From: Patescibacteria group bacterium
Lineage (GTDB): Bacteria; Patescibacteriota; Patescibacteriia; Magasanikbacterales; GWA2-37-8
Length of the DNA stretch: 64,000 nucleotides
Direction: 5' to 3'
Assembly: GCA_041649475.1 (NCBI GenBank)
Contig: JBAZNA010000001.1
Span: 392,612 to 456,611 of the forward strand
Part shown: positions 24,401 to 56,347 of the stretch, piece after piece
How positions within the stretch are numbered: position 1 is the first letter of the stretch
Layout of the letters: the number at the start of each line of letters is the position of its first letter
Notes under the pieces: model-generated
What the model saw: the letters and a program-made list of their open reading frames with translations, nothing else
Databases searched by the model: none
What the model was told of the DNA's origin: nothing
Made by a program: the position numbers and the translations under genes

Positions 24401-27033
24401 CGGGCATTGTCTCGTGGATAAATTTGCCGTTCGTTTCCACCACCATACCGCAAGGCACAATAATGTCTTATTCAGCGCAAATTAACAATACAGATATTTT
24501 AACAATTTATGGCGAGACCAACGGCTCGGGCGGTTTGCAGAATCCGCGGGTGGGTGTTGGCACCACCACGCCAAATGCAAAGCTTACTATTTATAGTGAT
24601 ACTATAGCCACTTCCTCTAATGCTCTCACCGTTTATAACACTTCCTCCACGCGGTTGTTAAAAGTTGCCGACAGTGGAGATATTAGTTTTGGAAATGCCG
24701 ATGGTTTGTATTATGAGGCCTCAAGTTCGGTTACATATGTAAACAGTTTGCAAACCGGCCCGCAGAGTTTTGACGAGGACGCGGGCATAGTTTCATGGAT
24801 CAATTTACCGATTACCACTACCACGGCCGGAATAGTGAACAGCTACAGCGCTCAAATTGCCAGTAATGATATTTTGACAATTTACGGTGAGACCGATGGA
24901 AGCGGAGGTATATTAAATACAAAAGTCGGTATCAACAGCAACACTCCGATGGCAACTTTGGCAGTGCAGGGTTACGCCAGCAGTTTGCCAATTTTTGACG
25001 TGGCTTCTTCAAGCGGTGCCAGCTTCTTGAGGGTCCTAGCGAATGGAAAAGTGGGGATTGGGACAACGACACCGAGGAATCCATTGGATGTGCGTGCAGT
25101 CGGGGGAACTGAAGAAGTTTTGAGAATTGGTGGTGGAAGTACGAACGATACTTATGGTTTCGGCGTGGGAGGTGGGTCACACGCGGCTGGAGGATATTTT
25201 GGCTTGTGGCATTTTAGCGCTACTACCAATGATTGGGATACAAACGTATTTTTAGTAACTCCAACAGGTGATTTTTATCCACAGCACAATATACAAATTG
25301 CTCCTCCCAGTGGATATACAAATGGAAACAATTTGGGATTATTTCCACAAACAGACGCCACACTAGAAAATGCCGTCTTGAAGTTATACGGTGCAAATGC
25401 ATTGCAGTTTGATGTGCGACCGTACACAGGTACTTGGGGAACGCAAGTTACTGCTATGTATATAAATGGTGTTGGCAACGTTGGCATCGCTACCACCACA
25501 CCTTTAGCTAGACTTACTATTGCCGGCGCTACCATCGCCACTTCCTCCAATGCTCTCACTGTCTATAACGCTTCAACCACCCGTTTATTTAAAGTTGCCG
25601 ATTCCGGTGACATCTCCATGGGTTCTGCGGACGGCTTCTACTATGAGGCATCCACCAGTATTTCATATGTCAATTCTCTACAAACCGGTGGCTTAAATTT
25701 TGATGATAATGCCGGTCTGGTAAGCTGGGTGGATATGACCATTGATAACAATGCTACCACTGGCACACCGGAAGGATACACTGCCTCGCTCAACGGCAAT
25801 CCGATGATACTTGTCTATGGCGACAGCGTCGGTGACGGCACAGTCACCAATATGACTGTCTCCATTGGCACCAGCACCACCAGCACTTACAAGCTATATA
25901 TAGACGCGGGTGGAAGCGCCAATGCTGGTTTAGGTGTCAACGGTTATATCAAATCATCCGGGTTTATCGCCGGCACCACCACTTTGGACTTGGCCGAAAC
26001 CTACCCGCTTGATCCGAATTGTTCGGCTCTTGGAAATTGTCCGGCAGTGGGCGATGTGGTTTGCGCGAACGAGAAAAATGTTAATATACAAATTCCGGAT
26101 CCGTCCAACCCATCTTCAACCATTGATACCGTAAACACTTTGTTTGTCATAGAAAAATGTTCAGCCACTTCAACCGACAACGCGATTGGTGTGGTTTCCG
26201 CCAATCCGGGCTTTGTCCTCGGTGGCTATGACTTGAACGATACTTTGAAATCCAAAAATCCGGGTTTGTATCCGTCAACTTATCAGCCGGTGGCCTTGTC
26301 CGGACGCGTGCCGGTTAATGTTTCACTGGAAAACGGTCCGATTAAAGCAGGGGACTTGCTTACTTCATCTGTCCAGCCGGGCGTGGCTGTGAAAGCGGTT
26401 GAACCGGGTCGTGTGATCGGTGTGGCTTTGGAATCTGCCAGCGCCACCAGCTCTGTGCCGACAATAAAAATGTTTGTCAACCCGCATTGGTCAGTTGGAT
26501 CGCTCACCGAAGAACAGATCAGTAACGAATTGCCTGACTTCAGTGTACAAGGAATATTAGACAGCTTCACTGTGGCTGTGGAAAATAGTTTACGGAAATT
26601 GGGAATGCTGTTAAAGAATGGCGTAGCCACAGTCAAACAATTATTTGCCGATAAAGTGCAGACCAATCAACTGTGCGTTGGCGCTACTTGCGTAAACGAA
26701 CAGCAATTGCAGGATTTATTAAACAAAACAAATACCCAGCCGGCCGCACCCGTGATTGAGACCCCGACAACAACTGAACCACCAGCTAGTACAACAACCC
26801 CTGTCGTTGAGACCCCGACAACAACCCCGCCAGTCACCGAACCTGTCGCGCCGGTCGTTGAGACCCCTCCGACTACAGAACCGGCTCCGCCAACAGAAGT
26901 AACTCCGCCACCGACCGAAGTAACTCCGCCACCAGCGGAACCAGCTCCAGTTGTGGTTGAACCCGCTCCAGCACCAGAACCTGCTCCTACTCCAGCCCCG
27001 GCCCCAGCTGATACCGGAACAGTAACTCCATAG
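18475..27033 (+). CDS. Giant (2852 aa) repetitive Thr/Gly/Ser-rich surface protein with N-terminal TM anchor and Pro/Thr/Glu-rich C-terminal tail
   Basis: A single uninterrupted ORF. N-terminal TM helix (ILTGASLIVGIFMALYYFVY). Dozens of GNVG[IV]GT.SP-type motifs. About five copies of a ...SSSPIAKLGVQGSVTNGSLPLLDIASSTGSSLLRVTSGGNVGIGT... module and about four copies of an ~100-aa ATIATSSNALTVYNASST...FDEDAGIVSWINLPITTTTAG... module. C-terminal Cys-containing domain, then a PTTTEPP.../APAPEPAPTPAP low-complexity tail. Confidence 0.7.
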   Translation: MLVTMDNGERYKKFSKILTGASLIVGIFMALYYFVYPVLANPPGSPYAPGATLDPGCSPGDPNCTVYPPLTTTLTTSTAITMGTSTLNFGTSTLFIDAYNTRVGIGTANPTYTLHVVGNTNLGGDVTTTGNLYIAGVTNFGQTVITNLNVTSVTSTNLYISGLASFNTIASGTWAGSIIANTHGGTGQNSSGWTGFAYVNNGTWTTSTITTGTVSGLPTFNAGTAGWIPYYAGATSTLTPTSAIFIAADGKVGINSTSPIAQFAINQMAGSATDAALFDVSSSTGGSMLHVSANGNVGVGTVSPAANLSVISNLRIFRPGYETTAYAEFIRNPTGGFIYSSNALYVGGTNTKTSLGGGSIGGIVQGIFNSASNQTAVDIPITFSPGSGTPTDIALNINPIINWGGTPGAGSYEALKIAVTETSLPTGNNYLIRASAGAAGTTDRFVVTNNGYVGIGTSSPVGALSLASGQVFVPDGAAATPSYSFVGEQNTGFYRPTSGLLTVAVRNAQIAAFNGQAGTNYGLVLGGTKSLQWNVDDNPATGYNVDTALARSAVGMLEINNSNSGQYRDLILRNLFATSSVGINSSSPIAKLGVQGSVTNGSLPLLDIASSTGTSLLRVTSGGNVGVGTASPGYKMDVNLGLFASNDTFGYNIYGNAGNAVGYAGYNLQLDNTTGNTSGYVRLARTPSTAYLGLEIGSQSRDGIRFLTNTITPVEVMRITSAGNVGINTTSPAWKLSVAGDINTTGTYRINDTQIALTNLGDTSLPAPVANDCLTYNGSFWVAGACTSLSAGQSVDYYINDQLSAVSTTLHLLERAPITATEVSDVVSVPAGTTTTIDAYISSSTIGATQVDAGAWTFSVFASSTGGAGQQTIVIEVYTISVTGTTQLLFSVRTADITQTTPTLIDVETVQPAFQLASSTDRLYVIFKGSNTGGTARNIGYTENGTSRYTHFHTPLLTRHNNLAGIQGGSTADQYYHLTAAEYAGTGSGIFVKQTSPTFLTNISIGGGTATTTIYGSATSTFPYGATFATTGGSVGIGTSTPTMPLHVYSSTAGVWGNPTNLAILEQASADANPFLVLRRTNTAYNDSAGGGITVQEGRPDGSTLATLGQLRFAQDDNFAATPKTSFILNLNNGSALTEVLRVKGNGSIGINSTSPIAKLGIQGSVTNGSLPLLDIASSTGSSLLRVLANGNVALSLGSYLCFDGSGCSAGINYTGGGAMQFNGSNMIFYSSNIDVQGNAIYNSGSGNGGGIYINDNVGIGTSTPDARLTVLSATIATSSNALTVYNASSTKLFKIADSGDVSFANDGLYYEASSSVLYANSIETGAMNFDEDAGQVTWVNLPITTTTAGLVESYSAQVGDNNILTVYGVTDGAGGVSQLRVGINTSTPLSDLDVFGSMVLSGSNRYLNFGNTTGTTGYGIYDNGGVMQFKNSSGAWTNISTSTVAYGTAGYIPYYATTGNALTATSAVFIKTDGKVGIGTTSPSAKLQITPNANTTVGLIVQGDNNQTADIQQWQTSTGTLLASIIGSGSYQGGWLFYGLNNYIDASNYSRLRISPNGNEYRLITESAGSGTARDLSLVADTGRALYFGANGTAYQAYLNALGNFIVNGGKLGVSTSTPIAKLGVQGLATEGSLPLLDIASSTGSSLLRVTSGGNVGIGTASPDTTLHVNGNITLGTGSSSNDHLIFNYISGLGEDYARIRLGASGYERVKLSLGIDPLATGRGLFKISTGDGGSAPTERFRITPSGYIGINSSTPMAQLAVQGYATSTPLLDIASSTGSSLLRVTSGGNVGIGTESPYAPLQVGAGIPLYSTGQLDVWQASKPVTSIGNVNIYSNDSATINTGGSIGFGGANGSNTYVFGKVAGRLENASGYAGYLQFSTTLASSEISEKMRITSAGNVGIGTTSPYARLSITSAGITSSTLAFAVDNASSTQLMRIDDAGNISMGGDGFYYDASTTVSHLNAEFGSMSFDEDAGIVSWINLPFVSTTIPQGTIMSYSAQINNTDILTIYGETNGSGGLQNPRVGVGTTTPNAKLTIYSDTIATSSNALTVYNTSSTRLLKVADSGDISFGNADGLYYEASSSVTYVNSLQTGPQSFDEDAGIVSWINLPITTTTAGIVNSYSAQIASNDILTIYGETDGSGGILNTKVGINSNTPMATLAVQGYASSLPIFDVASSSGASFLRVLANGKVGIGTTTPRNPLDVRAVGGTEEVLRIGGGSTNDTYGFGVGGGSHAAGGYFGLWHFSATTNDWDTNVFLVTPTGDFYPQHNIQIAPPSGYTNGNNLGLFPQTDATLENAVLKLYGANALQFDVRPYTGTWGTQVTAMYINGVGNVGIATTTPLARLTIAGATIATSSNALTVYNASTTRLFKVADSGDISMGSADGFYYEASTSISYVNSLQTGGLNFDDNAGLVSWVDMTIDNNATTGTPEGYTASLNGNPMILVYGDSVGDGTVTNMTVSIGTSTTSTYKLYIDAGGSANAGLGVNGYIKSSGFIAGTTTLDLAETYPLDPNCSALGNCPAVGDVVCANEKNVNIQIPDPSNPSSTIDTVNTLFVIEKCSATSTDNAIGVVSANPGFVLGGYDLNDTLKSKNPGLYPSTYQPVALSGRVPVNVSLENGPIKAGDLLTSSVQPGVAVKAVEPGRVIGVALESASATSSVPTIKMFVNPHWSVGSLTEEQISNELPDFSVQGILDSFTVAVENSLRKLGMLLKNGVATVKQLFADKVQTNQLCVGATCVNEQQLQDLLNKTNTQPAAPVIETPTTTEPPASTTTPVVETPTTTPPVTEPVAPVVETPPTTEPAPPTEVTPPPTEVTPPPAEPAPVVVEPAPAPEPAPTPAPAPADTGTVTP

Positions 27034-27034
27034 C

Positions 27035-29065
27035 ATGAAAAAATTATTCACAATTATTTCAATTTTTACCTTCATTCTAGCGATAGGCATAATTTTTGTG
27101 GTACTCAAGCCCGCCTCTGCCACAGTTCTCAACACACCTACCGTTAATTCCACCCTATCCAACGGCCTTGTCGGCTGGTGGACAATGGATGGAAAAGATT
27201 CCGATGCTGCAGCTTTTTTTGACAAAAGTGGAAGTGGAAATGTAGGAGTAAAAAACGGCGGAGTGGGAAGCGTTTCCGGTCAAATTGGGCAGGCGGCAGG
27301 TAGTTTTAATGGATCAAATTATCTTAATGCCGGTAATTCCTCCACTCTTAATCCTTCAATTATTACCATCACGGCGTGGATAAAAATAAAAACCATCGCC
27401 GCTAATAATAATACTATTTTAGTAAGAGGAGGCGCCGATTATTCGTTTGAAACAAATAATATCGGTGGTGGAAATGAAACATTGGCATTCTATCTCAACG
27501 GTTATAATGCTTTTCGTGGAAATACCGGTCTCACCAGAAATAAATGGAATTTTGTGGCCGTTTCTTATGATCCAAATTTGGCCAGTCAGAATATAAAGTT
27601 TTATCTTAATGGTGTTCCGGATGGAACCTCTGTAACCAGCAGTCCCATGGTTTCTACTGCCAATTATATTACTATTGGCGCCCGCGGTGGCGGTGCCGCT
27701 AATTTTAATTTGGATGACGTCCGTGTCTACAACCGCGCCCTATCCGCTTCCGAAATCCAGCAATTATATACACAAGGCGGTGGAAAGATAAATACAGCTG
27801 ATTTGGTTAATGCCCAGCTTCGCAACGGGCTGGTTGGTTGGTGGACAATGGATGGAAAGGATGGTTCAACCGACAAAAGCGGACACAATCTTAATGGAAC
27901 GAATACGGCGATAACAAAAGTGGCGGGCAAAATCGGCCAGGCGTATAAGTTTGATGGAACGACTTCTGCCGTAACTTTGCCGAGTTTTACCAATACCGCT
28001 GTAATCTCACGAACCGCTTGGATTAAAACAACCAGCACCGCTCAACAGGGCGTGTTAGACAATTATTCTAATGGCGCTGGAATATATTTTGGGTTAACCT
28101 CCGGAGTGGTATTTGTTTATCAAAATAGTGGGAACCCAACGGGAACAAGTGGAACTAGAACAGTCACTGATGGTAAATGGCATCATATCGCCTTTACTAA
28201 TGATGGGACAGTATCTTCATTTTATTTAGACGGGATCTTTGATAGATCTACACCGCAAACATTAACAGCGCAGGCAAGCGTTGGCAGTATTGGATATGGC
28301 AGCGGTGCCGGCGGTTTTGCCGGCTCATTAGATGATATTAGAGAATATAACCGTGTTTTGTCCGCCACCGAAATTCAAGAACTATACAAACAAGGCGGGG
28401 GAAAGATAAACAAAACAGATTTGATCACAGCGCAACTGCGCAACGGGCTTGTTGGTTATTGGACCATGGATGGGAAAGATATTGACGCCGGTTCGGTTTT
28501 TGATAAAAGCGGGTTAGGAAATATTGGCACCAGAACTGGTGGCACAAAACTTGTTTCAGGTAAAATTGGGCAGGCGATGAACTTTAATGCTTCTGATACG
28601 GGGGTCAGTGTTGCCGGGTCATCAATAACGGGAACAAACGTCAGTCGCTTTGCCTGGATTAAAATTAAAAATACGGACCCTGCTACTTGTGGCGGAGGCC
28701 GTTGTGAAATTATAGGTGGAGTAGGATCGCCGTACAGTTTGCTTGAGTGGGATGGAAGTTTGTCGGTTTATGGGTATGGGTTTGACACGCCTGCGTGGGT
28801 GAGTGTTGCAACCACCCTGGTCGCCAACAGATGGTATCATGTTGGTTTTACTTATGACGGAACTCGTTTACGGATTTTCAAAAATGGCGTGGATATTGGC
28901 GGTAATAATAATGCCCCCGGAGCTATGGCGGCGATGGGATCTTTGTCTGTCGGTTATCTAAGTGGTGTTGGCAGATATTTTAATGGTTCTATTGATGATG
29001 TGCGCGCTTACAGTCGCGCCCTGTCCGCCACCGAAGTAATGCAGTTATATAAAATGGGAAAATAA
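27035..29065 (+). CDS. Secreted triple LamG/ConA-like (Laminin_G_3-type) domain protein, paralog 1 of 6
   Basis: Signal peptide. Three ~220-aa units each start GLVGWWTMDGKD...DKSG.GN.G....G.......GKIGQA..F[DN]G and end LDDVRVYNRALSA.EIQQLY. Start codon is 2 nt after the giant ORF's stop. Confidence 0.75.
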   Translation: MKKLFTIISIFTFILAIGIIFVVLKPASATVLNTPTVNSTLSNGLVGWWTMDGKDSDAAAFFDKSGSGNVGVKNGGVGSVSGQIGQAAGSFNGSNYLNAGNSSTLNPSIITITAWIKIKTIAANNNTILVRGGADYSFETNNIGGGNETLAFYLNGYNAFRGNTGLTRNKWNFVAVSYDPNLASQNIKFYLNGVPDGTSVTSSPMVSTANYITIGARGGGAANFNLDDVRVYNRALSASEIQQLYTQGGGKINTADLVNAQLRNGLVGWWTMDGKDGSTDKSGHNLNGTNTAITKVAGKIGQAYKFDGTTSAVTLPSFTNTAVISRTAWIKTTSTAQQGVLDNYSNGAGIYFGLTSGVVFVYQNSGNPTGTSGTRTVTDGKWHHIAFTNDGTVSSFYLDGIFDRSTPQTLTAQASVGSIGYGSGAGGFAGSLDDIREYNRVLSATEIQELYKQGGGKINKTDLITAQLRNGLVGYWTMDGKDIDAGSVFDKSGLGNIGTRTGGTKLVSGKIGQAMNFNASDTGVSVAGSSITGTNVSRFAWIKIKNTDPATCGGGRCEIIGGVGSPYSLLEWDGSLSVYGYGFDTPAWVSVATTLVANRWYHVGFTYDGTRLRIFKNGVDIGGNNNAPGAMAAMGSLSVGYLSGVGRYFNGSIDDVRAYSRALSATEVMQLYKMGK

Positions 29066-29078
29066 TTAGCCGAACAGC

Positions 29079-31088
29079 ATGAAAAAAATAAGTTTTACAA
29101 TTTTGGGTTTATCCTTTCTCGCCGTTGGCCTATTGTTTTCGCACAGCGTTTTTTCCGCGACCGTGAACACATCGGGGAGTGTTTCTTTGCCCAATCTAAA
29201 TAAGGGTTTGGTGGGGTGGTGGACGTTTGATGGTAAAGATTTTCTTGATCCGACACATATAAAAGATACTTCCACAAATGGAAATATTGGCACCGTATCT
29301 AGTGGAATTAGAAAATTAACCGGGAAATTAGGGCAAGCGTTAAGTGGAAGTGGGACATCCGCCTGGGTTAATACCGGAAATGCGGCCTCCTTACAGGTTG
29401 ATACGGGAACCTTATCACTTTGGTTAAAGGGCAGTAGTTTAAATGATGATGGACAACATAATCTTATTCAGAAAGCTAACGCTTATGGCATTTTTATGTT
29501 GGGTGGATTGTTGGAAACATATAGCTGGGGAGGTAGTGCAGGATTTAGAAATACTAATATTAATATAAGAGATAATAAGTGGCACCATATTGTAATGTCA
29601 TTTCAAAGCGGAGTTACAAACGGAACGATATTTTATGTTGATGGTGTGCAGAGGTATTTAACAACTATTACAATTTCGGACCAGCTCGGCAGTTTTGATA
29701 TTGGAGGTGCAAATTTGCTTGGTTCTCTTGATGACGTCCGCGTCTACAGTCGTGTCTTGTCTGTTTCCGAAGTCCAACAACTATACAAACAAGGCGGGGG
29801 GGTGATAGTAAATAAACCTGAAACCGCCAAACCAAATTTAAATTCGGGATTGGTGGGGTGGTGGACTTTTGATGGAAAGGAAACAACCGCTGTAACCACA
29901 ACGGATAAAAGTAGAAATGGGATTGATGGAACGAGAATATCGGTTACTTCTGTTGCTGGCAAAATTGGCCAGGCGATGAAGTTTAACGGGACGACATCAA
30001 AAATAACTTTACCATCTTTTACGACTGGCGCCACACTTACACTGGCAGGGTGGTTTAAAACAACCAGCAATGACCAGCAATCAATTGTTAATAATTATTG
30101 GGACTCGAGGGGTTTGTATTTTGGCACAGTTGGCGGGAAGATGTTTTCTTACTCAACTTATAATAGTCCAGAAGCTTTTCAGGGTAATGCAATTATCAAA
30201 GACAATAAATGGCACCTTGGTGTTTATACGCTTAATGGGACTAAGGGTAGGTTTTATGTAGATGGAATTCTGGATAAAGAGATAGATCAAACAAGAACAA
30301 CGTTTACCTTGGCAGGGGCAATTGGTTTTGGTATGGGTTCACCGGATTATTTTAACGGTCTTATTGACGACGTTCGTGTCTACAACCGCGCTTTGTCCGC
30401 GCAGGAAGTCCAACAATTATACAAACAGGGCGGAGGCATCATAACCAGCAAATCCGAAACTACCAAGCCGAATTTGAATTCCGGTTTGGTTGGGCATTGG
30501 ACCTTTGACGGAAAAGATTGGGCTTCGCCCACGGTTGTATTGGACAAGAGTGTGAATAAAAATAATGGAACTCTAAACGGAGGGGTGACCAGAGTGAGTG
30601 GCAAATTTGGGCAGGCGATGAAGCTTAATGGAACAAATGGATTTATAACTTCAGCAACGACGGGATTTCCGACTTCCAGTGCCGCCATTTCTTTCTGGGC
30701 TAAAGTTGTTAATCCGGCTTCAAATACATCAATTATATATTCCGGTCCTCTTTTTAATATTCACTTTCCCGGGTGGGGAGGTATTTATTGGGACTTTGGT
30801 TCCACTGCTAGTGGAGGCAGGCTTTCTATTGCTTGGGATGCAAGCTGGACTAATAAATGGGCTTTTTGGACGTTTACTTCGCAAGACGGTGTCGGGCAAA
30901 AAATTTTTAGAAATGGAATAGTTATTGCGAGCGACAACGATACCGCCACTTCTTCATACGGCGCGACATTTTGGATAGGCGACCTGCCGGGCTATGATTC
31001 TTGGGATGGAACTCTGGATGATCTTCGCATCTACAACCGCGCCCTGTCCACTGCTGAAGTAACGCAGTTGTATAAAATGGGAAAATAA
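29079..31088 (+). CDS. Secreted triple LamG/ConA-like domain protein, paralog 2 of 6
   Basis: Signal peptide ending VFS/AT; same three-unit architecture and the same LDDVRVY.R.LS..EVQQLYKQGGG junction motifs. Confidence 0.75.
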   Translation: MKKISFTILGLSFLAVGLLFSHSVFSATVNTSGSVSLPNLNKGLVGWWTFDGKDFLDPTHIKDTSTNGNIGTVSSGIRKLTGKLGQALSGSGTSAWVNTGNAASLQVDTGTLSLWLKGSSLNDDGQHNLIQKANAYGIFMLGGLLETYSWGGSAGFRNTNINIRDNKWHHIVMSFQSGVTNGTIFYVDGVQRYLTTITISDQLGSFDIGGANLLGSLDDVRVYSRVLSVSEVQQLYKQGGGVIVNKPETAKPNLNSGLVGWWTFDGKETTAVTTTDKSRNGIDGTRISVTSVAGKIGQAMKFNGTTSKITLPSFTTGATLTLAGWFKTTSNDQQSIVNNYWDSRGLYFGTVGGKMFSYSTYNSPEAFQGNAIIKDNKWHLGVYTLNGTKGRFYVDGILDKEIDQTRTTFTLAGAIGFGMGSPDYFNGLIDDVRVYNRALSAQEVQQLYKQGGGIITSKSETTKPNLNSGLVGHWTFDGKDWASPTVVLDKSVNKNNGTLNGGVTRVSGKFGQAMKLNGTNGFITSATTGFPTSSAAISFWAKVVNPASNTSIIYSGPLFNIHFPGWGGIYWDFGSTASGGRLSIAWDASWTNKWAFWTFTSQDGVGQKIFRNGIVIASDNDTATSSYGATFWIGDLPGYDSWDGTLDDLRIYNRALSTAEVTQLYKMGK

Positions 31089-31089
31089 T

Positions 31090-33201
31090 ATGAAACGCGT
31101 TTTGTTCACAGTTCCTTTCTTACTGATAATACTCGCCGCGGGCTTGTTTTTGCGTTCCCGTTTTGCAAATGCCATGGTTGTCAATCAAAGCGTTAACAAT
31201 AGCAACTTAACTTTTGGTTTGGTGGGCTGGTGGACAATGGATGGAGCGGATACCAATGCCACACAGGCCTTGGATAAAAGCGGAAATGGAAATACCGGCG
31301 CTAGAAATGGCGGGACTAAACTTGTTTCGGGCAAAATTGGGCAGGCGATGAAGTTTGATGGGAGTAGCGGGAATATTGCTACAACTCCAGGTGTTACTGC
31401 CTTGACTTCTACATCTACTTTTACAATGTCGGTTTGGGTTTATTGGAATGATACCACCGCAAACGCACCCGCGACGGAATGTCCTTTTTATAATGGAGGC
31501 AGTTATGGTTTTTGTATAAATACTGGAGGTAATAAAATGGGTATTTATTATAATAATATTAACGCGACTGTTATAGTCGCGAGTGTATTACCAAAAAAAA
31601 CCTGGAGACATTATGTGATGACAAGGGCTAATGGGGTAAGTTCTTTGTATGAAAATGGAGTATTTAAGGACTCTCAAAATACCGATGTCCCCCAAGATGT
31701 GAATACGTTTTATGCCACGCATGTTGGAGAATTGTGGGCTGGTCCTACCTTTCCTTTTAACGGTTCAGTTGACGATGCCCGCATTTACTCCCGCGCCCTG
31801 TCCGCCACAGAGGTCCAGCAATTATACAAACTCGGCGGCGGAAAGATAAATCAAACTCCGACAATAAATTTAAGCAACGGCCTGGTGGGCTGGTGGACAA
31901 TGGATGGAGCGGATACAAACGCCACACAGGCGTTGGACAAATCAGGGTATAATAACACGGGGACAAGAACGACAGTTACACCAGTGGTAGGGGAAATAGG
32001 TCAGGCAATGAGTTTTAATGGGACGAGCGGATATGTTAATGTTCCAGTAAGTCAAGGATCTGTTTTGGATATAGCCACTAGTACATATTCGGTTTGGATT
32101 TATCCAACTGTGAGTGGTGTTGGAGCACAAAGTGGGCTTAGAGGTATAATCACTCGTGATTCTGGGAGTATGCCAATGGCGTGGAGATATGCCAATGATA
32201 ATATCATATTTAGCTTTAACGATACGATTATTATTACGGTCGCAGGTCCGGCTTTGAATAAATGGACCCTGGCTACTGTAACATACGATGGTACGAACGT
32301 GAGAATGTATTATAACGGCGTTCTTGTTGCTGGCCCCACCGCTTCTTCGCCGCCGGCTGTTTCAAGCGATCCTTTAAAAATTGGATTGGACTACACTGGT
32401 CAGTATAGTAGATATTTTAGTGGGAAAATGGATGACGTTCGCATCTACAGCCGCGCCCTGTCTGTCGCCGAAGTAAAAGCCCTGTATCAAATGTCACTTC
32501 CCGCAAAATCCAATTCCTCCAATGCGGGCAAAGGCGGATCTTTAACGGATTCCAGTTTGGTGGGCTGGTGGACTTTTGATGGCGCCTATACAAATACCAC
32601 ACAGGCCCTGGACAAAAGTAGAAATAGTAATACCGGTACCAGAACTGGTGGAACAAAACTTGTTTCAGGCAAACTCGGTCAGGCGATGAAGTTTGATGGG
32701 AGCAGTGCATACGTTGGAATGGCGGCTTCTGCGGGAAATAATTCAAGTGCCATAGGTCATACGTATGCCGTCTGGGTTTACAGAACAAAAGATTATAGCA
32801 GCGGACTCGGATGGGTTATAGAGAATGGCGGGACATGGGGGGAAGCGGGTGGCTCTAATTTGACGATCAGCGGAAACAGAATTTGTTATTATTATAACAA
32901 TGCTAATGTTTCGGTTTTAAGCAATAGTACCGTTTCAGCCAATGCCTGGCACCATATCGTGGTTTCGTATAATGCAAATACCAATAAAGCTACGTTTTAT
33001 TTGGATGGAAGAGCAGATGGAACCAGTGCAGCCCTGGGAAGCTGGGATGCTTCAACAAATTTAGTTAGAATCGGAAATTGGATTTCAGGAGGGGGTGGGC
33101 ATAATGAATACTATTTTGAAGGTTCCATTGACGACGCCCGCATCTATTCCCGCGCCCTCTCGGCCGCCGAAGTAATGCAGTTATATAAAATGGGAAAGTA
33201 A
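31090..33201 (+). CDS. Secreted triple LamG/ConA-like domain protein, paralog 3 of 6
   Basis: Signal peptide; three LamG-like units; start codon 2 nt after the previous stop. Confidence 0.75.
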   Translation: MKRVLFTVPFLLIILAAGLFLRSRFANAMVVNQSVNNSNLTFGLVGWWTMDGADTNATQALDKSGNGNTGARNGGTKLVSGKIGQAMKFDGSSGNIATTPGVTALTSTSTFTMSVWVYWNDTTANAPATECPFYNGGSYGFCINTGGNKMGIYYNNINATVIVASVLPKKTWRHYVMTRANGVSSLYENGVFKDSQNTDVPQDVNTFYATHVGELWAGPTFPFNGSVDDARIYSRALSATEVQQLYKLGGGKINQTPTINLSNGLVGWWTMDGADTNATQALDKSGYNNTGTRTTVTPVVGEIGQAMSFNGTSGYVNVPVSQGSVLDIATSTYSVWIYPTVSGVGAQSGLRGIITRDSGSMPMAWRYANDNIIFSFNDTIIITVAGPALNKWTLATVTYDGTNVRMYYNGVLVAGPTASSPPAVSSDPLKIGLDYTGQYSRYFSGKMDDVRIYSRALSVAEVKALYQMSLPAKSNSSNAGKGGSLTDSSLVGWWTFDGAYTNTTQALDKSRNSNTGTRTGGTKLVSGKLGQAMKFDGSSAYVGMAASAGNNSSAIGHTYAVWVYRTKDYSSGLGWVIENGGTWGEAGGSNLTISGNRICYYYNNANVSVLSNSTVSANAWHHIVVSYNANTNKATFYLDGRADGTSAALGSWDASTNLVRIGNWISGGGGHNEYYFEGSIDDARIYSRALSAAEVMQLYKMGK

Positions 33202-33204
33202 AAT

Positions 33205-35304
33205 ATGAAACGATTTTTATTCACAATTTCCATAATAATATTCCTATGGCTGGTAGCGCCGGCAAGCGCCGCCACTATCTCCACATCTAACACCAGCGCC
33301 CCGAATTTAAAAACAGGTCTCGTTGGCTGGTGGACGTTTGATGGGGTATCAGTCACCAGCACCGGCGTTCTTGATAAAAGCGGACAAAATAATAATGGCG
33401 GTAGAATGGGTGGGACTTCCGTGGCTACCGGAAAGGTTGGACAGGGAATTAAACTAAATGGAACTACCGGCTACATTTCGGGCGCCAATTCAACAGATAT
33501 CGCGTCTACACCGGTGACTGTTTCTGTGTGGGTAAAATTTTTAACCATTGCTCCTGGTAATAATTATCCAAGAATAATTGATGTGCAGGATAGTAATTAT
33601 TCAGTCCAAATAGTTTGGGACTATGGAACGGGTGGCAGTGGTCAATTTGTAACCAAGCATAGTGAGTGGCAAGCCGCAGGTGACGGTACACAGTGGGGTG
33701 TAACACCGGTTCTAAATAAATGGTATCATCTTGTGGCAGTTTGGGATGCGTCTGCAAACTCAACCAAATTTTATGTTAATGGTATTGAACAGTCAGGTTC
33801 GGCAAATAGTAATATTGGTGAGGGAGCATCAAGAAACAAATATTTTTTTGGAGTCAGAGGCGACCTTTTAGCAAGTCCAAATACTTTTGGTAACGAGGTG
33901 CTTGACGACGTTCGTATTTACAGTCGTACTCTGTCCGCTACCGAAGTTCAGGCATTATATAAACAAGGCGGAGGAGTGATAAGCAAAACCGATTTAATCA
34001 CGGCACAACTGCGAAACGGATTGGGAGGTTTGTGGACTTTTGACGGAAAAGATACAACCTCGGTAACGACCACCGATAAAAGCGGAAATGGGAATGACGG
34101 AACAAGAAGTGGTTTAACAAAAGTGATAATCGGCAAAATTGGACAGGGGATGAATTTTGATGCGGTTCATGGAAGCGGTCAGATAACCATAACATCGTCT
34201 CCGTCTGTCCATCCAACAGGGAGCTTTACCCTATCAGCTTGGGTTAATCGTGCCAATGCACAAAATGCGGAAATTATTCAAAAAGGTACTGGGGCTTTTA
34301 GCGGAGCAGCGGCGGGTACCGACTTTGAATTCGGTTTTGTTTCTCTTTTATATTTTCAATTTCACGGCAGTGACGGTTCAGCCAACAGTTTGGCTGTTTC
34401 TGCGCCAATATTGAATCAATGGCAGTTACTTACAGCGGTTTTTGATTCAGGAAGAACAATGAAAATTTATATCAATGGAGTAGAAAAAGCCACCAAAGAT
34501 GTCACGGTCACGAGCACTGAAGATTCCACCGGTAATTTACATATTGGCGGGTTTGTTTATTTTTTTCATGGTTCTATAGACGACGCCCGCATCTACAACC
34601 GCGCTCTTTCGGCCACGGAAATTCAACAATTATATACACAAGGTGGAGGTAAAATCAGCAAGACCGATTTAATCACAGCGCAACTGCGAAACGGATTGGT
34701 TGGCCATTGGACTTTTGATGGAACGTCAGTCACCACCACGGGCGTTATTGATAAGAGCGGACAAAATAACAACGGGGTCAGGGTGGGCGGGACAAAAGTG
34801 GCAACCGGTAAAATCGGGCAGGCGATGAAGTTTGATGGGGCGGACGGAAGAATATATTCTTCCTGCACCGGTTTTTCTAATACAGCGATCAGTATTGCTT
34901 TTTGGGCCAAACAATTGGCCGCGCCTTCTAATTATTCTCTGGTGGTTGGTGACCAAGGCGGCCTGGGCGCTGTTTTTGTCTTTCCATCCGATGGTAGGTT
35001 TTTCGGTCAGCTTTCCTTGACTTCTGCCGGAAACGTTTATTCAGGGTATGTTGCCCCAGGAACAGGTTGGAATCACTGGGTGTTTACTTGGAAAAGTGGC
35101 GATAAATTAAAACTTTATAAAAACGGTGTTTTAGCCAGCCAGAGCGGAGACGCATATACTGATACGATTCAAAATTTTATAGGAATTTATATTGGTTATT
35201 ACAGTGGTGTAAATTATTTTAACGGTTATATAGACGACGCCCGTGTCTACTCCCGCGCCCTGTCCGCGGCCGAAATCCAGCAGTTATATAGGATGGGGAA
35301 ATAA
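33205..35304 (+). CDS. Secreted triple LamG/ConA-like domain protein, paralog 4 of 6
   Basis: Signal peptide ending APASA/AT; three LamG-like units. Confidence 0.75.
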   Translation: MKRFLFTISIIIFLWLVAPASAATISTSNTSAPNLKTGLVGWWTFDGVSVTSTGVLDKSGQNNNGGRMGGTSVATGKVGQGIKLNGTTGYISGANSTDIASTPVTVSVWVKFLTIAPGNNYPRIIDVQDSNYSVQIVWDYGTGGSGQFVTKHSEWQAAGDGTQWGVTPVLNKWYHLVAVWDASANSTKFYVNGIEQSGSANSNIGEGASRNKYFFGVRGDLLASPNTFGNEVLDDVRIYSRTLSATEVQALYKQGGGVISKTDLITAQLRNGLGGLWTFDGKDTTSVTTTDKSGNGNDGTRSGLTKVIIGKIGQGMNFDAVHGSGQITITSSPSVHPTGSFTLSAWVNRANAQNAEIIQKGTGAFSGAAAGTDFEFGFVSLLYFQFHGSDGSANSLAVSAPILNQWQLLTAVFDSGRTMKIYINGVEKATKDVTVTSTEDSTGNLHIGGFVYFFHGSIDDARIYNRALSATEIQQLYTQGGGKISKTDLITAQLRNGLVGHWTFDGTSVTTTGVIDKSGQNNNGVRVGGTKVATGKIGQAMKFDGADGRIYSSCTGFSNTAISIAFWAKQLAAPSNYSLVVGDQGGLGAVFVFPSDGRFFGQLSLTSAGNVYSGYVAPGTGWNHWVFTWKSGDKLKLYKNGVLASQSGDAYTDTIQNFIGIYIGYYSGVNYFNGYIDDARVYSRALSAAEIQQLYRMGK

Positions 35305-35319
35305 ATCCATATAGATTTT

Positions 35320-37362
35320 ATGAAGCGCATTTCGTTCGCAATTGCCGCAATAATATTCCTATGGCTGATGGCACCAGCAAACGCTATTGTTGTCAATTCT
35401 TCTCCGGCCAAAAGTTTGACAAATGGTTTGGTGGGCTGGTGGACGTTTGATGGGATGGATACGACGGCAAGCACTGCTAATGCTAAAAATGGGTTAGGAA
35501 ATAACGGAACAAGGATGGGAACGACGTCGCTAGTGAGGGGCAAGATTGGCCAGGCAATAAAACTTGATGGGTTAAGCGGACAAATAAACGCCGGTTCGGC
35601 TAGCGGTTTTGGAAGTACAGAAAGTCATACTTTTTCTGCTTGGATAAATGCCAAAGCTCTTGGTGCTGATGCTGATTGGCCGTGTATCATTAGCAGAGAC
35701 AACACTGGTGTAGGTACAGACCTGCTTATTTACAATCAGAAAATCTCTTTTTTATATAACGGAGGAGCGGCGGCAGTTTTTGGCAATTCACCTCTTTCTT
35801 TAAATAAATGGTATTTTATTTCTGTAGTTTATGATGCCTCCACCAATAAAGCTACTTTTTATGTAAATGGTTTACTAGATGTAACTTCAAATGCTCTTGG
35901 TTCATGGAATTCCGGTTCGGCCCCATTATATATTGGTTCATATCAGGGAAGTACTCATTTTTTTAATGGTTCTATTGATGATGCGCGCATCTATAGCCGA
36001 GCCCTGTCCGCTACCGAAATTCAGCAACTATACAAACAAGGCGGGGGAGTGATAAACAAAACTGATTTAATTAAAGCGCAACTGCGCACCGGACTCGTAG
36101 GCCAGTGGACCTTTGACGGATTGTCAGTCACCAGTACCGGCGTTCTTGATCAAAGCGGACTAGGAAATAACGGTGGCAGGCAAGGCGGAACTTCTCTGGT
36201 GAGAGGCAAAATCGGCCAGGCGATGAAGTTTGATGGAACAAATGACTTTATTGACGTAGGGCATAGTAATACAAGTTTGGATTTAGAAGACAGATTAACT
36301 CTTTCTACATGGGTTAAGTTTAATGTTTTAACCGGAACTTTTGAAGAAATGATTGTTAAATCCGGGGGTTATTATTGGATAGGTATCACTCAAGATGGTG
36401 CAGACTACAAACCGTATTTCCTTATCTATAATGGTACTAATCGAACTGTCACAGGAGTGACTTCCATTAAGACAGGGGTCTGGTACCATATTGTTGGTAC
36501 TTGGGATAAAAATGAAGGAACCATGAGGTTATATCTCAATGGGATTTTTGAAAATTCATTACCTAATATCACCACTTCTATTTTTGCGCAGACAGCCAAT
36601 GTTTATTTGGGCGGAGATGTCACTGTAAGAATCAATGGACTTATTGACGACGCCCGTATCTACAACCGCGCCCTGTCCGCGACAGAAATCCAGGAACTTT
36701 ATAAAATGGGCGGGGGGGTGATAAACAAAACTGATTTGATTAAGGCACAGCTCCGCACCGGGCTCGTCGGCCAGTGGACCTTTGACGGATTATCAGTCAC
36801 CAGTACCGGCGTTCTTGATCAAAGCGGACAAAATAACAATGGTGGCAGGCAAGGTGGAACTTCTCTGATGAGAGGAAAAATCGGGCAGGCGATGAAGTTT
36901 GATGGCGTGGATGGCAAAGTTTCGGCGACAGGTTATGAGACCACGATATTTACAATCAGCGCGTGGGTAAAAACTAATGATGCTAGAGACGACAAACATT
37001 TTGTCGAGTTTACCGACAGTTCTGGCTACAGACACGGGATAGGACTGTACCCGGCAGGCAGACCGGTTATGACTTACGGCGTGGCAAAATGGAAAAACAG
37101 CACCGGTTCCTTAATAAACGATTCAAAATGGCATCATTTTGTCGGCACTTACGACGGAATTAGCGCAAAAATATATATTGATGGCATTTCCCAAGGCCTC
37201 TCTGGCGAAAATTCATGTGGCGCATCAGCAGCAAGTGTCCTAGTGATTGGAAGAGCCGTGGATAACGGTTCCCAAGTTAATTCTTTAATTGACGACGCTC
37301 GTGTCTACTCCCGCGCCCTGTCCGCGCAGGAGGTTTACCAATTGTATAAAATGGGAAAATAG
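35320..37362 (+). CDS. Secreted triple LamG/ConA-like domain protein, paralog 5 of 6
   Basis: Signal peptide ending APANA/IV; three LamG-like units. The starts of units 2 and 3 are near-identical at the nucleotide level (about 36046-36240 vs 36706-36900). Confidence 0.75.
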   Translation: MKRISFAIAAIIFLWLMAPANAIVVNSSPAKSLTNGLVGWWTFDGMDTTASTANAKNGLGNNGTRMGTTSLVRGKIGQAIKLDGLSGQINAGSASGFGSTESHTFSAWINAKALGADADWPCIISRDNTGVGTDLLIYNQKISFLYNGGAAAVFGNSPLSLNKWYFISVVYDASTNKATFYVNGLLDVTSNALGSWNSGSAPLYIGSYQGSTHFFNGSIDDARIYSRALSATEIQQLYKQGGGVINKTDLIKAQLRTGLVGQWTFDGLSVTSTGVLDQSGLGNNGGRQGGTSLVRGKIGQAMKFDGTNDFIDVGHSNTSLDLEDRLTLSTWVKFNVLTGTFEEMIVKSGGYYWIGITQDGADYKPYFLIYNGTNRTVTGVTSIKTGVWYHIVGTWDKNEGTMRLYLNGIFENSLPNITTSIFAQTANVYLGGDVTVRINGLIDDARIYNRALSATEIQELYKMGGGVINKTDLIKAQLRTGLVGQWTFDGLSVTSTGVLDQSGQNNNGGRQGGTSLMRGKIGQAMKFDGVDGKVSATGYETTIFTISAWVKTNDARDDKHFVEFTDSSGYRHGIGLYPAGRPVMTYGVAKWKNSTGSLINDSKWHHFVGTYDGISAKIYIDGISQGLSGENSCGASAASVLVIGRAVDNGSQVNSLIDDARVYSRALSAQEVYQLYKMGK

Positions 37363-37375
37363 GAGCTACGCCCAT

Positions 37376-39601
37376 ATGAAAATAGTTATGTATAAATTCC
37401 GTTTTACAATTTTGTCTGTATTGGTCGCTCTTGTCTGGGTATTTTTGCCGCTCAAAACTTCTGCCCTCGTTATTTCTAAAACTCCGGCCAACAGTTTGCA
37501 AACCGGCCTGGTGGGCTGGTGGACTTTTGATGGAAAGGATTGGGCGTCTTCCCTGATTACTAAGGATAAAAGTGTGTTTAATAATAACGGAACTTTGATC
37601 GGAGGAGTGGCAAAAGTGAATGGAAAAATCGGGCAGGCCATTAATTTTACAGGTACTGGCACAGATTACATGTCTTTAGGTGCAACCACACCATCATCAT
37701 TGCAAAATTTGCCATTAGGAGATTTTACTGCTTGTGCGTGGGTGTATCCCAAATCACAAGGAAAAAACAATCTGGGAACCATATTTGATAATTATATTAC
37801 TCCAAATGGCGGATGGGCTTTGTTGTTGGTTCCTAATTATGCTCTTCAACTATCAATTGATTATCAGGGTGGTACCGGAAATGTTTATGCCCATAGTTTG
37901 GATAATGCTATAACACCAAGGGTGTGGCAACATCTTTGTATGGTTTTTAATATAAGCACTAAACGTGGACGGTTATTTAAAAATGGCATACAACTATCAT
38001 TGAATGGTGACGTTGCCGGTGGAACCAGCTATGCGAACGACGCGACCCATGAGTTCCGCATCGGTAATCAATCAAATACAACAGACCGTACCTTTGACGG
38101 GAAAATGGATGATGTCCGCATCTACTCTCGCGCCCTGTCCACAACGGAAATCCAAGAACTATATAAACAAGGCGGGGGAGTGATAAACAAAACCGATTTG
38201 ATTAAAGCGCAACTTCGCACTGGGTTGGTTGGCCAATTGACTTTTGATGGTAAGGATTTTTCTGATGCAACTCATGCCATTGATAAGAGTGGAAGAGGCA
38301 ATACAGGCACGCTGAATGGCACTTTGAGGAAAGTTAATGGAAAAATTGGACAAGCGTTAAGTTTTCCCGGACTGGCCACGGCCAATATTACAATGGCCGA
38401 TTCTGCAATCCTTAATCCCGGAAGTGGTGATTACACTGTAAGTACGTGGTTTAAATATTACGGAATAGTTGATACTGCTCACCCTGCTTTTATTTATAAT
38501 GATTACGGTAGTAATACAAATAATTTAGTGAATTTGTCAATTGAGTATCCCAGTAATCAACTTAGAGCAACTTATAGAGACGGAAGCGGAAACGACATTC
38601 TTGTTCTCGGTGTTGGTCCAACAGTAAATGACAGCAAGTGGCATCATGTTGTCTGGACAAAAAATAACAAAACCGGTTATCTGTATCTTGATGGAGTGTT
38701 TATAACATCCGACACTGACAGTTTAGTTGGGACAATTACCACCAACGACGCCAACCCGCCGATGGTCGGTCGCTACTCGCAAGATGCTAATAATATAGGG
38801 ATGTTTTGGGGTTTGATGGATGACTTTCGCATCTACTCCCGTGCTCTGTCCGCCTCTGAAGTTCAAGAACTATACAAACAAGGCGGAGGAAAGATAAACA
38901 AAACCGACTTGGTTAAGGCGCAACTGCGCACTGGGTTGGTTGGCCACTGGACTTTTGATGGAAAAGATTGGGCTTCAAATATTTTAACTTTGGATAAAAG
39001 CGGGTCCAATAATAACGGCATTTTGAATGGGGGAGTTACAAAAGTTAATGGCAAAATCGGACAGGCGGTGAAGTTTGATGGGAGTACCGGATATATAAAT
39101 GGTGGTGCTACCGGAATAATTGCAAACAATAACTACACTTATGCGACCTGGGTTAAATTTAAAACTCTTCCGGCGGACGGTACTTACTATACGGTAATTG
39201 GCGTAACCGAAGGTGATCAAAATTTTTTAATGGCAAATAATTATAATGTCACCTGGCATTACACCGGATTTGGCTGTGGCAGTTACTACAACGCCAGCTT
39301 CGGCGACCAAGCCGGGTATAATGGAGTACTGCCGAGCATTAACAAATGGTATCATGTTGCGTGCGTTAGAAATACAGCCACCAATAAAATAAGTTTATAT
39401 ATCAATGGCGTGCTTTCTAGTTCTACTACTCTTTCCAGCCCAACCGCGTATTATGGCGCCACGCAAGCAGTTTATATTGGTCGCAGAATAGCCGGGCCGG
39501 GGTATGAGGGGTACTTTAATGGTTGGTTTGATGATGCCCGCATCTACAACCGCGCCCTGTCCGCTACCGAGGTTTATGAGTTATATAGGATGGGGAAATA
39601 A
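37376..39601 (+). CDS. Secreted triple LamG/ConA-like domain protein, paralog 6 of 6
   Basis: I chose the ATG at 37376 (MKIVMYKFRFTILSVLVALVW) over the listed 37289 start. An AGGAG sequence sits 10 nt upstream. Three LamG-like units. Confidence 0.7.
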   Translation: MKIVMYKFRFTILSVLVALVWVFLPLKTSALVISKTPANSLQTGLVGWWTFDGKDWASSLITKDKSVFNNNGTLIGGVAKVNGKIGQAINFTGTGTDYMSLGATTPSSLQNLPLGDFTACAWVYPKSQGKNNLGTIFDNYITPNGGWALLLVPNYALQLSIDYQGGTGNVYAHSLDNAITPRVWQHLCMVFNISTKRGRLFKNGIQLSLNGDVAGGTSYANDATHEFRIGNQSNTTDRTFDGKMDDVRIYSRALSTTEIQELYKQGGGVINKTDLIKAQLRTGLVGQLTFDGKDFSDATHAIDKSGRGNTGTLNGTLRKVNGKIGQALSFPGLATANITMADSAILNPGSGDYTVSTWFKYYGIVDTAHPAFIYNDYGSNTNNLVNLSIEYPSNQLRATYRDGSGNDILVLGVGPTVNDSKWHHVVWTKNNKTGYLYLDGVFITSDTDSLVGTITTNDANPPMVGRYSQDANNIGMFWGLMDDFRIYSRALSASEVQELYKQGGGKINKTDLVKAQLRTGLVGHWTFDGKDWASNILTLDKSGSNNNGILNGGVTKVNGKIGQAVKFDGSTGYINGGATGIIANNNYTYATWVKFKTLPADGTYYTVIGVTEGDQNFLMANNYNVTWHYTGFGCGSYYNASFGDQAGYNGVLPSINKWYHVACVRNTATNKISLYINGVLSSSTTLSSPTAYYGATQAVYIGRRIAGPGYEGYFNGWFDDARIYNRALSATEVYELYRMGK

Positions 39602-39623
39602 GTTGAATTAAATTATCTTGAAG

Positions 39624-39662
39624 TAGCCAAGTTACATCGCTTGGCTATTTTATTTTTCTTTT
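39624..39662 (+). terminator. Strong rho-independent terminator closing the giant-protein/LamG gene block
   Basis: TAGCCAAG-ttacatcg-CTTGGCTA hairpin followed by TTTATTTTTCTTTT. Confidence 0.65.
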
Positions 39663-39743
39663 ATCCAAATTTTAGTTTTTCTTTACCTAAATTTTATCTG
39701 GGGTATGTTAAAGTATTTTTGTTATTTTTAATCATTTAGTAAT

Positions 39744-41196: not shown

Positions 41197-41282
41197 AGCC
41201 AAATAATTTAGTTTTGGTTTGATAGACACACCCTCTATTTTGTGTTATTATATTTCTTGTTAGATAATAACCCAAATTAAGT

Positions 41283-56346: not shown

Positions 56347-56347
56347 A

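Follow-up and report, generated by a model that had tools for sequence, protein, structure and literature searches.

The six co-oriented genes found by open reading frame (ORF) mapping at 27035-39601 of a 64-kb piece of a Patescibacteria (Candidate Phyla Radiation, CPR) genome, hereafter the window, are separated by gaps of 1-15 nt, and each encodes a protein with an N-terminal signal peptide, an AxA-type cleavage site and three Laminin_G_3 (LamG) domains (three stretches in each of 6/6 proteins, with PF13385 matches of 190-257 bits versus a Pfam gathering cut-off of 27.6). The DNA of these genes is repeated at the domain boundaries and not in the domain cores, and the pattern probably reflects a constrained LamG frame on which occasional gene conversion between boundaries and the relocation of whole LamG units at the same boundary modules have been superimposed.

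A motif search located 18 copies of DDxRxY[SN]R, 12 at internal sites and 6 at gene ends (nt 27713, 28331, 28994, 29730, 30366, 31017, 31771, 32431, 33130, 33904, 34579, 35233, 35977, 36646, 37291, 38108, 38819 and 39530), and no further copy was found in any of the six frames of the window. A repeat search and a blastn self-comparison of 27000-39700 returned nucleotide self-matches that were all centred on domain boundaries, and the domain cores gave zero nucleotide self-matches within that range. An earlier note on this DNA had claimed a conserved junction at every LamG boundary, 18 sites in total, and both the motifs, which fall where it had placed them, and the all-versus-all self-comparison that it had proposed as a check bear this out. 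The conserved module, which comprises the C motif of one unit, a linker and the N segment of the next, is nevertheless about 270 nt long rather than the ~120-150 nt given in that note; it begins ~12 nt ahead of DD and continues through the helix xxEIQQLY and the linker up to GKIGQAxKFDG of the next unit. The long identical run reported near 36130/36790 was recovered as a 33-mer at 36127 and again at 36796, part of a 37-nt exact repeat (36124/36793). As for the short antisense ORFs of the region, four of them (27727-28038, 29744-30070, 30380-30688 and 32417-32788, minus strand, 102-123 aa) all overlap the boundary modules of clearly coding sense genes and are very likely spurious, in line with their description as mirror images that are not genes.

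The contribution of protein constraint was assessed against a null in which the six protein sequences were kept fixed and each codon was redrawn from the codon usage of these genes. Mean pairwise nucleotide identity between boundaries was 0.599 in the N segment, 0.671 in the C motif and 0.58 in the linker, compared with 0.568, 0.601 and 0.534, respectively, under constraint alone, and the constraint on the proteins therefore yields about 90% of the identity seen between boundaries; core identity was 0.387 as observed and 0.375 under the same null. Exact repeats were far more common than the null allowed, with 39 observed versus 3.4 +/- 1.9 expected at a length of at least 20 nt, 18 versus 0.94 at 23 nt or more and 6 versus 0.27 at 26 nt or more. 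At shared residues the same codon was used with a median frequency of 0.48 in the N segment and 0.52 in the C motif, compared with 0.43 in the cores and an expectation of about 0.40-0.42, and silent sites are saturated in the cores and not quite saturated in the boundaries. The wording of the junctions as highly conserved DNA is too strong, since mean identities were 0.58-0.67, individual junction identities were mostly 60-80% and the longest perfect match among junctions was 37 nt, but the excess over constraint is real and significant. Junction conservation no higher than the amino acid constraint, which together with a lack of structural variants the earlier note had accepted in advance as a refutation, is not what the repeats of at least 20 nt gave.

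Codon choice at the C motif was compared with that of 76 related loci from other genomes, and 259 C motifs were extracted. Codon sharing at the C motif reached 0.511 within the window and 0.385 against 20 loci of similar GC content at third codon positions (GC3), for which 0.376 was expected. Position-specific codon bias was rejected as a full explanation on these grounds, with sharing at expectation in genomes of similar GC3. The C motif is rich in C-ending codons (TAC, CGC, GCC, CTG and TCC), whereas the cores favor TAT, TTT and CAT, and the choice of GCC-CTG-TCC at the Ala-Leu-Ser of the motif is specific to this genome. The boundary excess therefore appears to be mainly genome-specific, pointing to a shared history of the boundary DNA inside the genome, and because the adjacent cores are saturated, such a history would have to consist of exchange limited to the boundaries, i.e. 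gene conversion. Over the window and the other genomes together, the Tyr of the C motif is encoded by TAC in 155 copies versus TAT in 84 and the Arg by CGC in 131/241, and the conserved core Tyr of FYxNG is encoded by TAT in 15/15 copies.

The best tract within the window, 35965-36236 versus 36634-36905, was 86.0% identical over 272 nt, with a synonymous divergence (dS) of 0.62 and a nonsynonymous divergence (dN) of 0.055, and the core adjoining this tract in gene 5 showed a proportion of synonymous differences (pS) of 0.76 and a dN of ~1. Units 2 and 3 of gene 5 shared 90% of the first 100 nt, 89% over 150 nt and 77% over 190 nt, which falls short of the near-identity over ~190 nt that had been claimed for this paralog. 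Tract dS values were 0.62 in gene 5, 0.63 in gene 6, and 0.83 and 0.46 for the N segments of gene 3. Because dS is ~0.6 even in the best tract, exchange is old rather than recent; the conversion events of the window date back to a dS of about 0.5-0.8, and the recent gene conversion proposed earlier for paralog 5 has to be abandoned. The suggested comparison of dN/dS between cores and junctions could be carried out on one side only, with values of about 0.09-0.13 in junction tracts and no estimate for the cores, where dS is saturated.

Boundaries of the same gene were more alike than other pairs of the window, both in nucleotide identity (0.705 versus 0.628, permutation p = 1e-4) and in codon sharing (0.552 versus 0.502, p = 0.038), and beyond this same-gene effect no gradient with gene distance was seen in the window. 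The array thus displays the features by which concerted evolution is recognized, namely a silent-site similarity that is higher within than between genomes, sharp-ended mosaic tracts beside unrelated sequence (the gene 5 tract and those of the relatives described below) and a dependence on proximity (same-gene pairs). These data support gene conversion as the way in which DNA has passed between boundaries. For RecA, sequences that are 60-80% identical and have perfect matches of 37 nt or less are poor substrates for frequent homologous recombination. The claim that the junctions serve as a recombination substrate hence stands for past boundary copying and, in relatives, for unit relocation, but not for frequent recombination today.

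The same organization recurs in the LamG subfamily, for which a protein database search returned 1,196 hits at E <= 1e-20 and in which a consensus over 65 proteins carries the same framework motifs as the array of the window. The boundaries thus encode framework motifs of the subfamily and are no constant layer of DNA peculiar to this array. Among the 76 loci the commonest architecture was a protein of three units and ~700-770 aa, often with 2-5 such genes in tandem, and proteins of 2, 4 and 5 LamG units also occur. In 129 boundaries from 62 loci, nucleotide identity and same-codon frequency were 0.78 and 0.60 between boundaries of the same gene, 0.65 and 0.47 between different genes of the same locus, and 0.57 and 0.38 between loci. 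Linkers were not conserved across genomes, and the two linkers of one gene were often nearly identical. At seven loci (L002, L071, L023, L018, L035, L022 and L005), the two internal modules of one gene were 89-95.5% identical over 267-317 nt; the cores beside such modules had no nucleotide match in 7/8 genes examined, and some boundary stretches of ~150 nt in relatives reached up to 100% identity. The module edges coincide across the relatives and gene 5 of the window, at approximately -37 to -49 aa on one side and +46 to +57 aa on the other side of the start of the unit, and homogenization confined to the boundary recurs independently in many genomes. In IMG/VR viral contigs (L079-L158), at least 148 stretches encode LamG proteins with GLVGWWT and DDxRxYxR at 24-39% identity, and phage proteins that share this framework are possible partners for unit exchange.

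Whole units also changed position in the relatives. Position-specific orthology of the cores (unit 1 with unit 1, and so forth) was absent, as the 3x3 table was flat and the best match came from the same position no more often than by chance, and each of the three strongest matches between cores of different genes joins different positions. The clearest example comes from the metagenome-assembled genome (MAG) CAYOER01, where unit 3 of the gene at 12193 of locus L021 (13538-14309) and unit 2 of the gene at 5599 of locus L022 (6290-7061) align along 772 nt with 93.8% identity, and ~360 nt of core sequence in this alignment show 100% identity; the left breakpoint lies at FNGxLDD and the right one just past LYN, where one gene ends in MGR and a stop codon and the other runs into a linker. 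That L022 is an allelic variant of the L021 locus was rejected, given that the contig flanks are unrelated, and the two genes are paralogs. A very recent transfer would account for the shared unit, and a chimera of the assembly is the less likely alternative. Matches between genomes likewise join unit 2 of L001 to unit 1 of L002 (79% over 774 nt) and unit 1 of the L021 gene at 3562 to unit 2 of L040 (71.5% over 516 nt). In the array of the window no recent unit transfer was seen, the closest cores being those of gene 1 unit 2 and gene 2 unit 2 (41% aa identity, same position), gene 3 unit 3 and gene 5 unit 1 (37%) and gene 4 unit 1 and gene 6 unit 3 (32%), the last two pairs from different positions. 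By these comparisons, unit relocation bounded by conserved modules is a real evolutionary process in this LamG family.

The window was also compared with other entries of the same DNA. It agreed with an ENA assembly (a 633-kb contig) along 22,100 nt and with a Logan contig along 2,986 nt, in both cases at 100% identity, and an assembly artefact or misassembly of the array was rejected on this basis. The three identical assemblies, which may come from one sample, lend no support to structural variation. Gene 5 (P0001) is a 100% match to a database protein annotated as 'LamG domain-containing protein [Patescibacteria group bacterium]' and encoded on a 963-kb contig, and no protein variant with at least 90% identity to it was present in the protein database, its nearest neighbor besides itself being its own paralog at 41%; exact-protein look-ups gave none for P0001 and only the identical sequence for P0004. 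The ends of the Logan contig L078 (k=31), at 33168 and 36153 of the window, fall exactly on the 31-nt (29031/33167) and 37-nt (36124/36793) repeats, and such LamG arrays mark places where short-read assemblies break.

The explanation that the boundaries are alike only through the LamG frame of ancient paralogs, with no exchange of DNA, would agree with the ~90% of boundary identity reproduced by codon resampling, with the occurrence of the same motifs in hundreds of proteins of other genomes and in viral contigs, with a dS of ~0.6 even in the best tract and with the family-wide CGC and TAC preferences at the motif. It does not, however, account for long exact repeats that are 10-20 times commoner than the amino acid-constrained null, for codon sharing that is greater within the genome than against genomes of similar GC3, for a similarity that declines from same gene to same locus to other genome, for linkers that differ across genomes yet match within genes, or for the modules of relatives that are 89-95.5% identical and contain ~150-nt stretches of up to 100% identity. 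The repeat excess, the codon sharing, the gradient and the modules of the relatives largely refute it, and we regard it as unlikely. A functional element at the nucleotide level in each boundary (an mRNA structure, a translational pause for co-translational folding or a regulatory site) would fit the run of C-ending codons in the C motif versus TAT, TTT and CAT in the cores, as well as the preference for CGC and TAC at these positions across genomes; codon sharing between genomes at expectation, genome-specific GCC, CTG and TCC choices, no Rfam match in the array and linkers that are wholly different between genomes nevertheless make it very unlikely. Several points weigh against exchange of boundary DNA and relocation of units, which we still prefer. 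The family-wide preference for CGC (Arg) and TAC (Tyr) at the C motif is a real position-specific codon effect; the core alignments, at ~20% aa identity, are unreliable, and what is called saturation is partly an effect of alignment; the synonymous excess in the window is small (3-7 identity points), and anchored core columns show a slight codon excess of their own (0.498 versus 0.432, mostly TAT, TTT and CAT), so that part of the synonymous signal of the window could be local codon preference. Moreover, the 100% identical core shared by L021 and L022 comes from a short-read MAG, in which a chimeric assembly is possible.

According to the earlier note, the array has the layout expected for cassette-type diversification or copy-number variation. 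In the strong form of this idea it would be a programmed system of the vls, pilE/pilS or MgPa/MgPar type, in which, as at antigenic-variation loci, the junctions would drive frequent recombination and generate new domain combinations or copy-number variants in the population. Conserved segments do flank variable ones here, the variable cores lying between conserved, co-oriented and in-frame junctions as such a system would require, and unit numbers of 2, 3, 4 and 5 in the family, unit relocation with breakpoints at junctions in relatives and the recurrence of tandem arrays in other genomes all point the same way. The array has, however, no expression site with silent donors: there are no silent or truncated copies, 6/6 genes have a start codon and a signal peptide, all 18 motifs lie inside them, and the 64-kb window holds no extra motif copies. 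The junctions are mostly 60-80% identical with no perfect match beyond 37 nt, cores no closer than 37-41% aa identity indicate no recent shuffling here, and neither the three assemblies, which are 100% identical but may stem from one sample, nor the protein database, in which variants of at least 90% identity are missing, give any sign of switching. The proposal is not supported as a description of this array, and we give it little credence. It is scarcely credible that the units duplicated recently and that their cores then diverged at an accelerated rate, by diversifying selection or by hypermutation such as that of a diversity-generating retroelement. Cores at ~20% aa identity beside conserved boundaries, and the fact that lectin-like surface proteins are typical targets of diversification, would favor it, but at identical and anchored residues the synonymous sites of the cores are at or near saturation and those of the boundaries are not, which faster amino acid change alone would not produce, the cores give zero nucleotide self-matches, and the annotated ORFs of the window include neither a reverse transcriptase nor a template repeat. 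A diversity-generating retroelement or other hypermutation was rejected on the absence of a reverse transcriptase among the window ORFs and of repeat partners for the cores, within the 64 kb of the genome examined.

In the scheme that we favor, constraint, conversion and relocation would act together. The repeats encode the structural frame found across a LamG (Laminin_G_3) subfamily abundant in Patescibacteria. In this frame the final beta-strand of one domain (DDxRIYxRALS) is followed by a short helix (xxEIxQLY), by a flexible linker and by approximately the first four strands of the domain that comes next (GLVGWWTFDG...DKSGxGNxGT...GKIGQAxKFDG). Most of the nucleotide similarity is explained by purifying selection on the frame, and homology-dependent gene conversion, presumably of a RecA type, would occasionally copy a boundary module of ~150-320 nt onto another, most often joining the two boundaries of one gene. 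Conversion would stop at the unrelated cores, for want of homology or because selection removes converted cores, and the same modules could serve as breakpoints when a whole LamG unit duplicates or moves between positions or genes, so that over evolutionary time variable cores would be reassorted within a constant scaffold. A very common three-LamG family, typically beside a giant surface protein, then evolves as variable cores in a constant scaffold whose coding DNA is kept similar by conversion and marks the breakpoints of whole-domain moves, which offers a concrete view of the way in which Patescibacteria may diversify their recognition repertoires. A bolder version, which we consider possible but doubtful, is that selection maintains the ~270-320-nt module as a 'recombination joint' in a lectin toolkit common to all Patescibacteria, kept homogeneous within genes by conversion for in-frame core swaps between positions, genes and perhaps phages; if true, genome-reduced episymbionts could change host or ligand specificity combinatorially without a dedicated diversification enzyme. 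In this window most of the DNA conservation comes down to ordinary constraint on the proteins, and nothing points to rearrangement in progress.

The AlphaFold2 (AF2) model of gene 5 (mean predicted local distance difference test score, pLDDT, 85.8) contains three all-beta domains of the beta-sandwich (jelly-roll) type, and the boundary appears in it as a strand (216-225), a 10-residue helix (231-240), a low-confidence linker and a further strand (259-263). Foldseek gave a probability of 1.00 to neurexin LNS, laminin LG, trans-sialidase lectin and neurotoxin Hc domains, and the sequence search matched 5hon_A at E 2.3e-9, its matches including a LamG-like arabinanase module and an S-layer protein. 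The sole NCBIfam match was TafC (NF052521), at 127 bits versus a cut-off of 410 and over profile positions 188-362 of 373; membership of this family was rejected, as the score is far below the cut-off, only the LamG part of the profile is covered and there is no N-terminal TafA-like domain. Patescibacteria are ultra-small and thought to live attached to other microbes, and lectin-like surface proteins, for which an adhesive role has been suggested in these bacteria, are the usual suspects for partner recognition (PMC12911398). From the fold, the secretion signals and this literature, the LamG proteins are most likely secreted, lectin-like and used by an episymbiotic cell for adhesion or recognition, and their variable cores presumably bind ligands.

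The coordinates of the array and of the elements next to it are collected in Table 1. The giant ORF, which stops 1 nt ahead of LamG gene 1, had no Pfam, NCBIfam or PDB sequence match, but homologues of it lie directly upstream of LamG genes in at least 25 related Patescibacteria loci, including L003 (41% over 805 aa), L001 (53% over 299 aa, with identity peaking in the C-terminal third), L044, L046 and L029. The giant protein and the three-LamG genes thus constitute a conserved neighborhood, and because the homologues are placed directly upstream of LamG genes in at least 25 loci, a functional pairing of the giant protein with the LamG proteins is suggested. No terminator comparable to the hairpin past gene 6 was found between the six LamG genes; that hairpin is likely the end of the operon, and the six LamG genes behind the giant surface-protein gene probably form a single operon.

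Table 1. Features of the LamG array and adjacent elements in the window (gNJM, internal boundary M of gene N; gNuM, unit M of gene N).
Feature	Position	Strand	Remarks
Giant ORF	18475..27033	+	2852 aa; N-terminal transmembrane segment, Pro/Thr-rich C-terminus; directly upstream of the array
LamG gene 1	27035..29065	+	676 aa; signal peptide and 3 Laminin_G_3 units; PF13385 E 6.9e-64
LamG gene 2	29079..31088	+	669 aa; PF13385 E 2.6e-56
LamG gene 3	31090..33201	+	703 aa; PF13385 E 2.7e-65
LamG gene 4	33205..35304	+	699 aa; P0004; found also in the ENA and Logan assemblies
LamG gene 5	35320..37362	+	680 aa; P0001; AF2 model, pLDDT 85.8
LamG gene 6	37376..39601	+	741 aa from ATG 37376; AGGAG 10 nt upstream; alternative ATG 37388
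First-unit N segment gene 1	27164..27309	+	GLVGWWTMDG...GQIGQA
First-unit N segment gene 2	29205..29350	+	self-match
First-unit N segment gene 3	31216..31361	+	82.8% versus unit 3 N segment; 93% over 59 nt versus that of unit 2
First-unit N segment gene 4	33316..33461	+	clusters with g4u3, g5u2 and g5u3 at 71-75%
First-unit N segment gene 5	35425..35570	+	self-match
First-unit N segment gene 6	37505..37650	+	clusters with g6u3 and g2u3 at 70-73%
Boundary module g1J1	27701..27972	+	unit 1 C motif, linker, unit 2 N segment; end approximate
Boundary module g1J2	28319..28590	+	self-match, motif
Boundary module g2J1	29718..29992	+	linker specific to gene 2, ...NKPETAKPNLNS
Boundary module g2J2	30354..30628	+	linker ...SKSETTKPNLNS shared with g2J1 only; 73.4% over 154 nt versus g2J1
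Boundary module g3J1	31759..32024	+	31220-31278 versus 31883-31941, 93.2% over 59 nt
Boundary module g3J2	32419..32699	+	linker divergent; N segment 82.8% identical to that of gene 3 unit 1
Boundary module g4J1	33892..34163	+	self-match, motif
Boundary module g4J2	34567..34838	+	76.1% over 280 nt versus g5J1
Boundary module g5J1	35965..36236	+	partner in the best putative conversion tract, 86.0% over 272 nt versus g5J2
Boundary module g5J2	36634..36905	+	second partner of the best tract; 37-nt exact repeat 36124/36793
Boundary module g6J1	38096..38367	+	38105-38258 versus 38816-38969, 84.4% over 154 nt
Boundary module g6J2	38807..39078	+	self-match
Terminal C motif gene 1	28982..29065	+	ends ...DDVRAYSRALSATEVMQLYKMGK and stop
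Terminal C motif gene 2	31005..31088	+	motif, self-match
Terminal C motif gene 3	33118..33201	+	31-nt exact repeat 29031/33167
Terminal C motif gene 4	35221..35304	+	motif, exact repeats
Terminal C motif gene 5	37279..37362	+	27-nt repeat 35242/37300
Terminal C motif gene 6	39518..39601	+	motif, self-match
Terminator-like hairpin	39619..39662	+	14 pairs and a T-run just past the gene 6 stop

The genes that flank this region are ordinary housekeeping genes (MreB, RRF, ProRS-like, TIM, thymidine kinase, SecA, SecDF and CysRS). The array is followed at 39650-41300 by an AT-rich stretch (GC ~0.38) with small ORFs without family match, in which an ORF6N-domain gene is located at 40768-41196 and the minus strand carries perfect -35/-10 consensus hexamers at 40479-40452. 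Genes for a Peptidase_C39-like protein, the DNA polymerase III tau/gamma subunit, an 839-aa TrwB/TraG-like coupling ATPase and PilM, at 53919-58867 (minus strand) and 61977-63128 (plus strand), are ordinary in Patescibacteria but relevant to surface and uptake machinery. A tRNA-Tyr(GTA) gene at 11325-11609 (plus strand), of class II with a long variable arm, has its anticodon loop split by a group I intron of 202 nt (Rfam RF00028, 55.1 bits, full-length model match); it was missed by the default tRNA scan and recovered by ARAGORN with the intron option, and another splice register would give tRNA-Ser(TGA).

Among known systems, TafC, a LamG-bearing protein proposed to be the adhesive tip of haloarchaeal Tat-fimbriae (PMC11821415), shares with the proteins of the window a LamG-like domain, but the latter have neither a TafA-like donor-strand domain nor a Tat signal. 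Neurexin LNS1-6, laminin LG1-5 and the LamG-type lectin modules of sialidases and clostridial neurotoxins resemble the window proteins in having the same fold and, as here, tandem LamG domains in a secreted protein; the window proteins, however, share only 9-15% sequence identity with them, lack EGF spacers, have different framework motifs (GLVGWWTFDG/DDVRIYNRALS) and are encoded in what is probably a bacterial operon behind a giant surface protein. Borrelia vlsE/vls (PMC3828179) and Mycoplasma genitalium MgPa/MgPar (PMC2169797) show the same alternation of conserved with variable segments, the conserved parts act as templates for recombination and the proteins are surface-exposed and take part in host interaction, a location and role that are predicted for the LamG array. 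Both systems, however, combine one expression site with silent partial donors, and frequent switching is visible in populations (PMC3828179, PMC2169797), whereas the LamG array consists of six complete genes with no silent copies, a low junction identity and three identical assemblies.

The array agrees better in kind with the concerted evolution of tandem repeats and paralogs, in which silent similarity is higher within than between genomes, depends on proximity and ends in tracts where homology ends, although homogenization of the LamG genes is confined to a module of ~270-320 nt straddling the boundary, and the cores diverge to saturation. In Helicobacter pylori, gene conversion takes place among the paralogous outer-membrane adhesin genes babA, babB and other Hop genes, which have conserved ends and variable middles. 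As in that system, every LamG copy has its full length and is expressed or could be, conserved segments lie on either side of divergent regions that presumably bind ligands, and exchange in the conserved segments would make chimeras and keep those segments similar within the genome. The LamG array differs in that its conserved segments are internal domain boundaries, 3 per gene and 18 per array, that the unit of exchange would be a whole LamG domain, and that the host is an uncultured Patescibacterium in which no population chimeras were observed. Literature searches found this pattern described nowhere for the LamG proteins of Patescibacteria. The array is a real but fairly ordinary case of mosaic evolution of surface proteins, and it extends an evolutionary mechanism that was already known to an uncultured lineage and to a new protein family.

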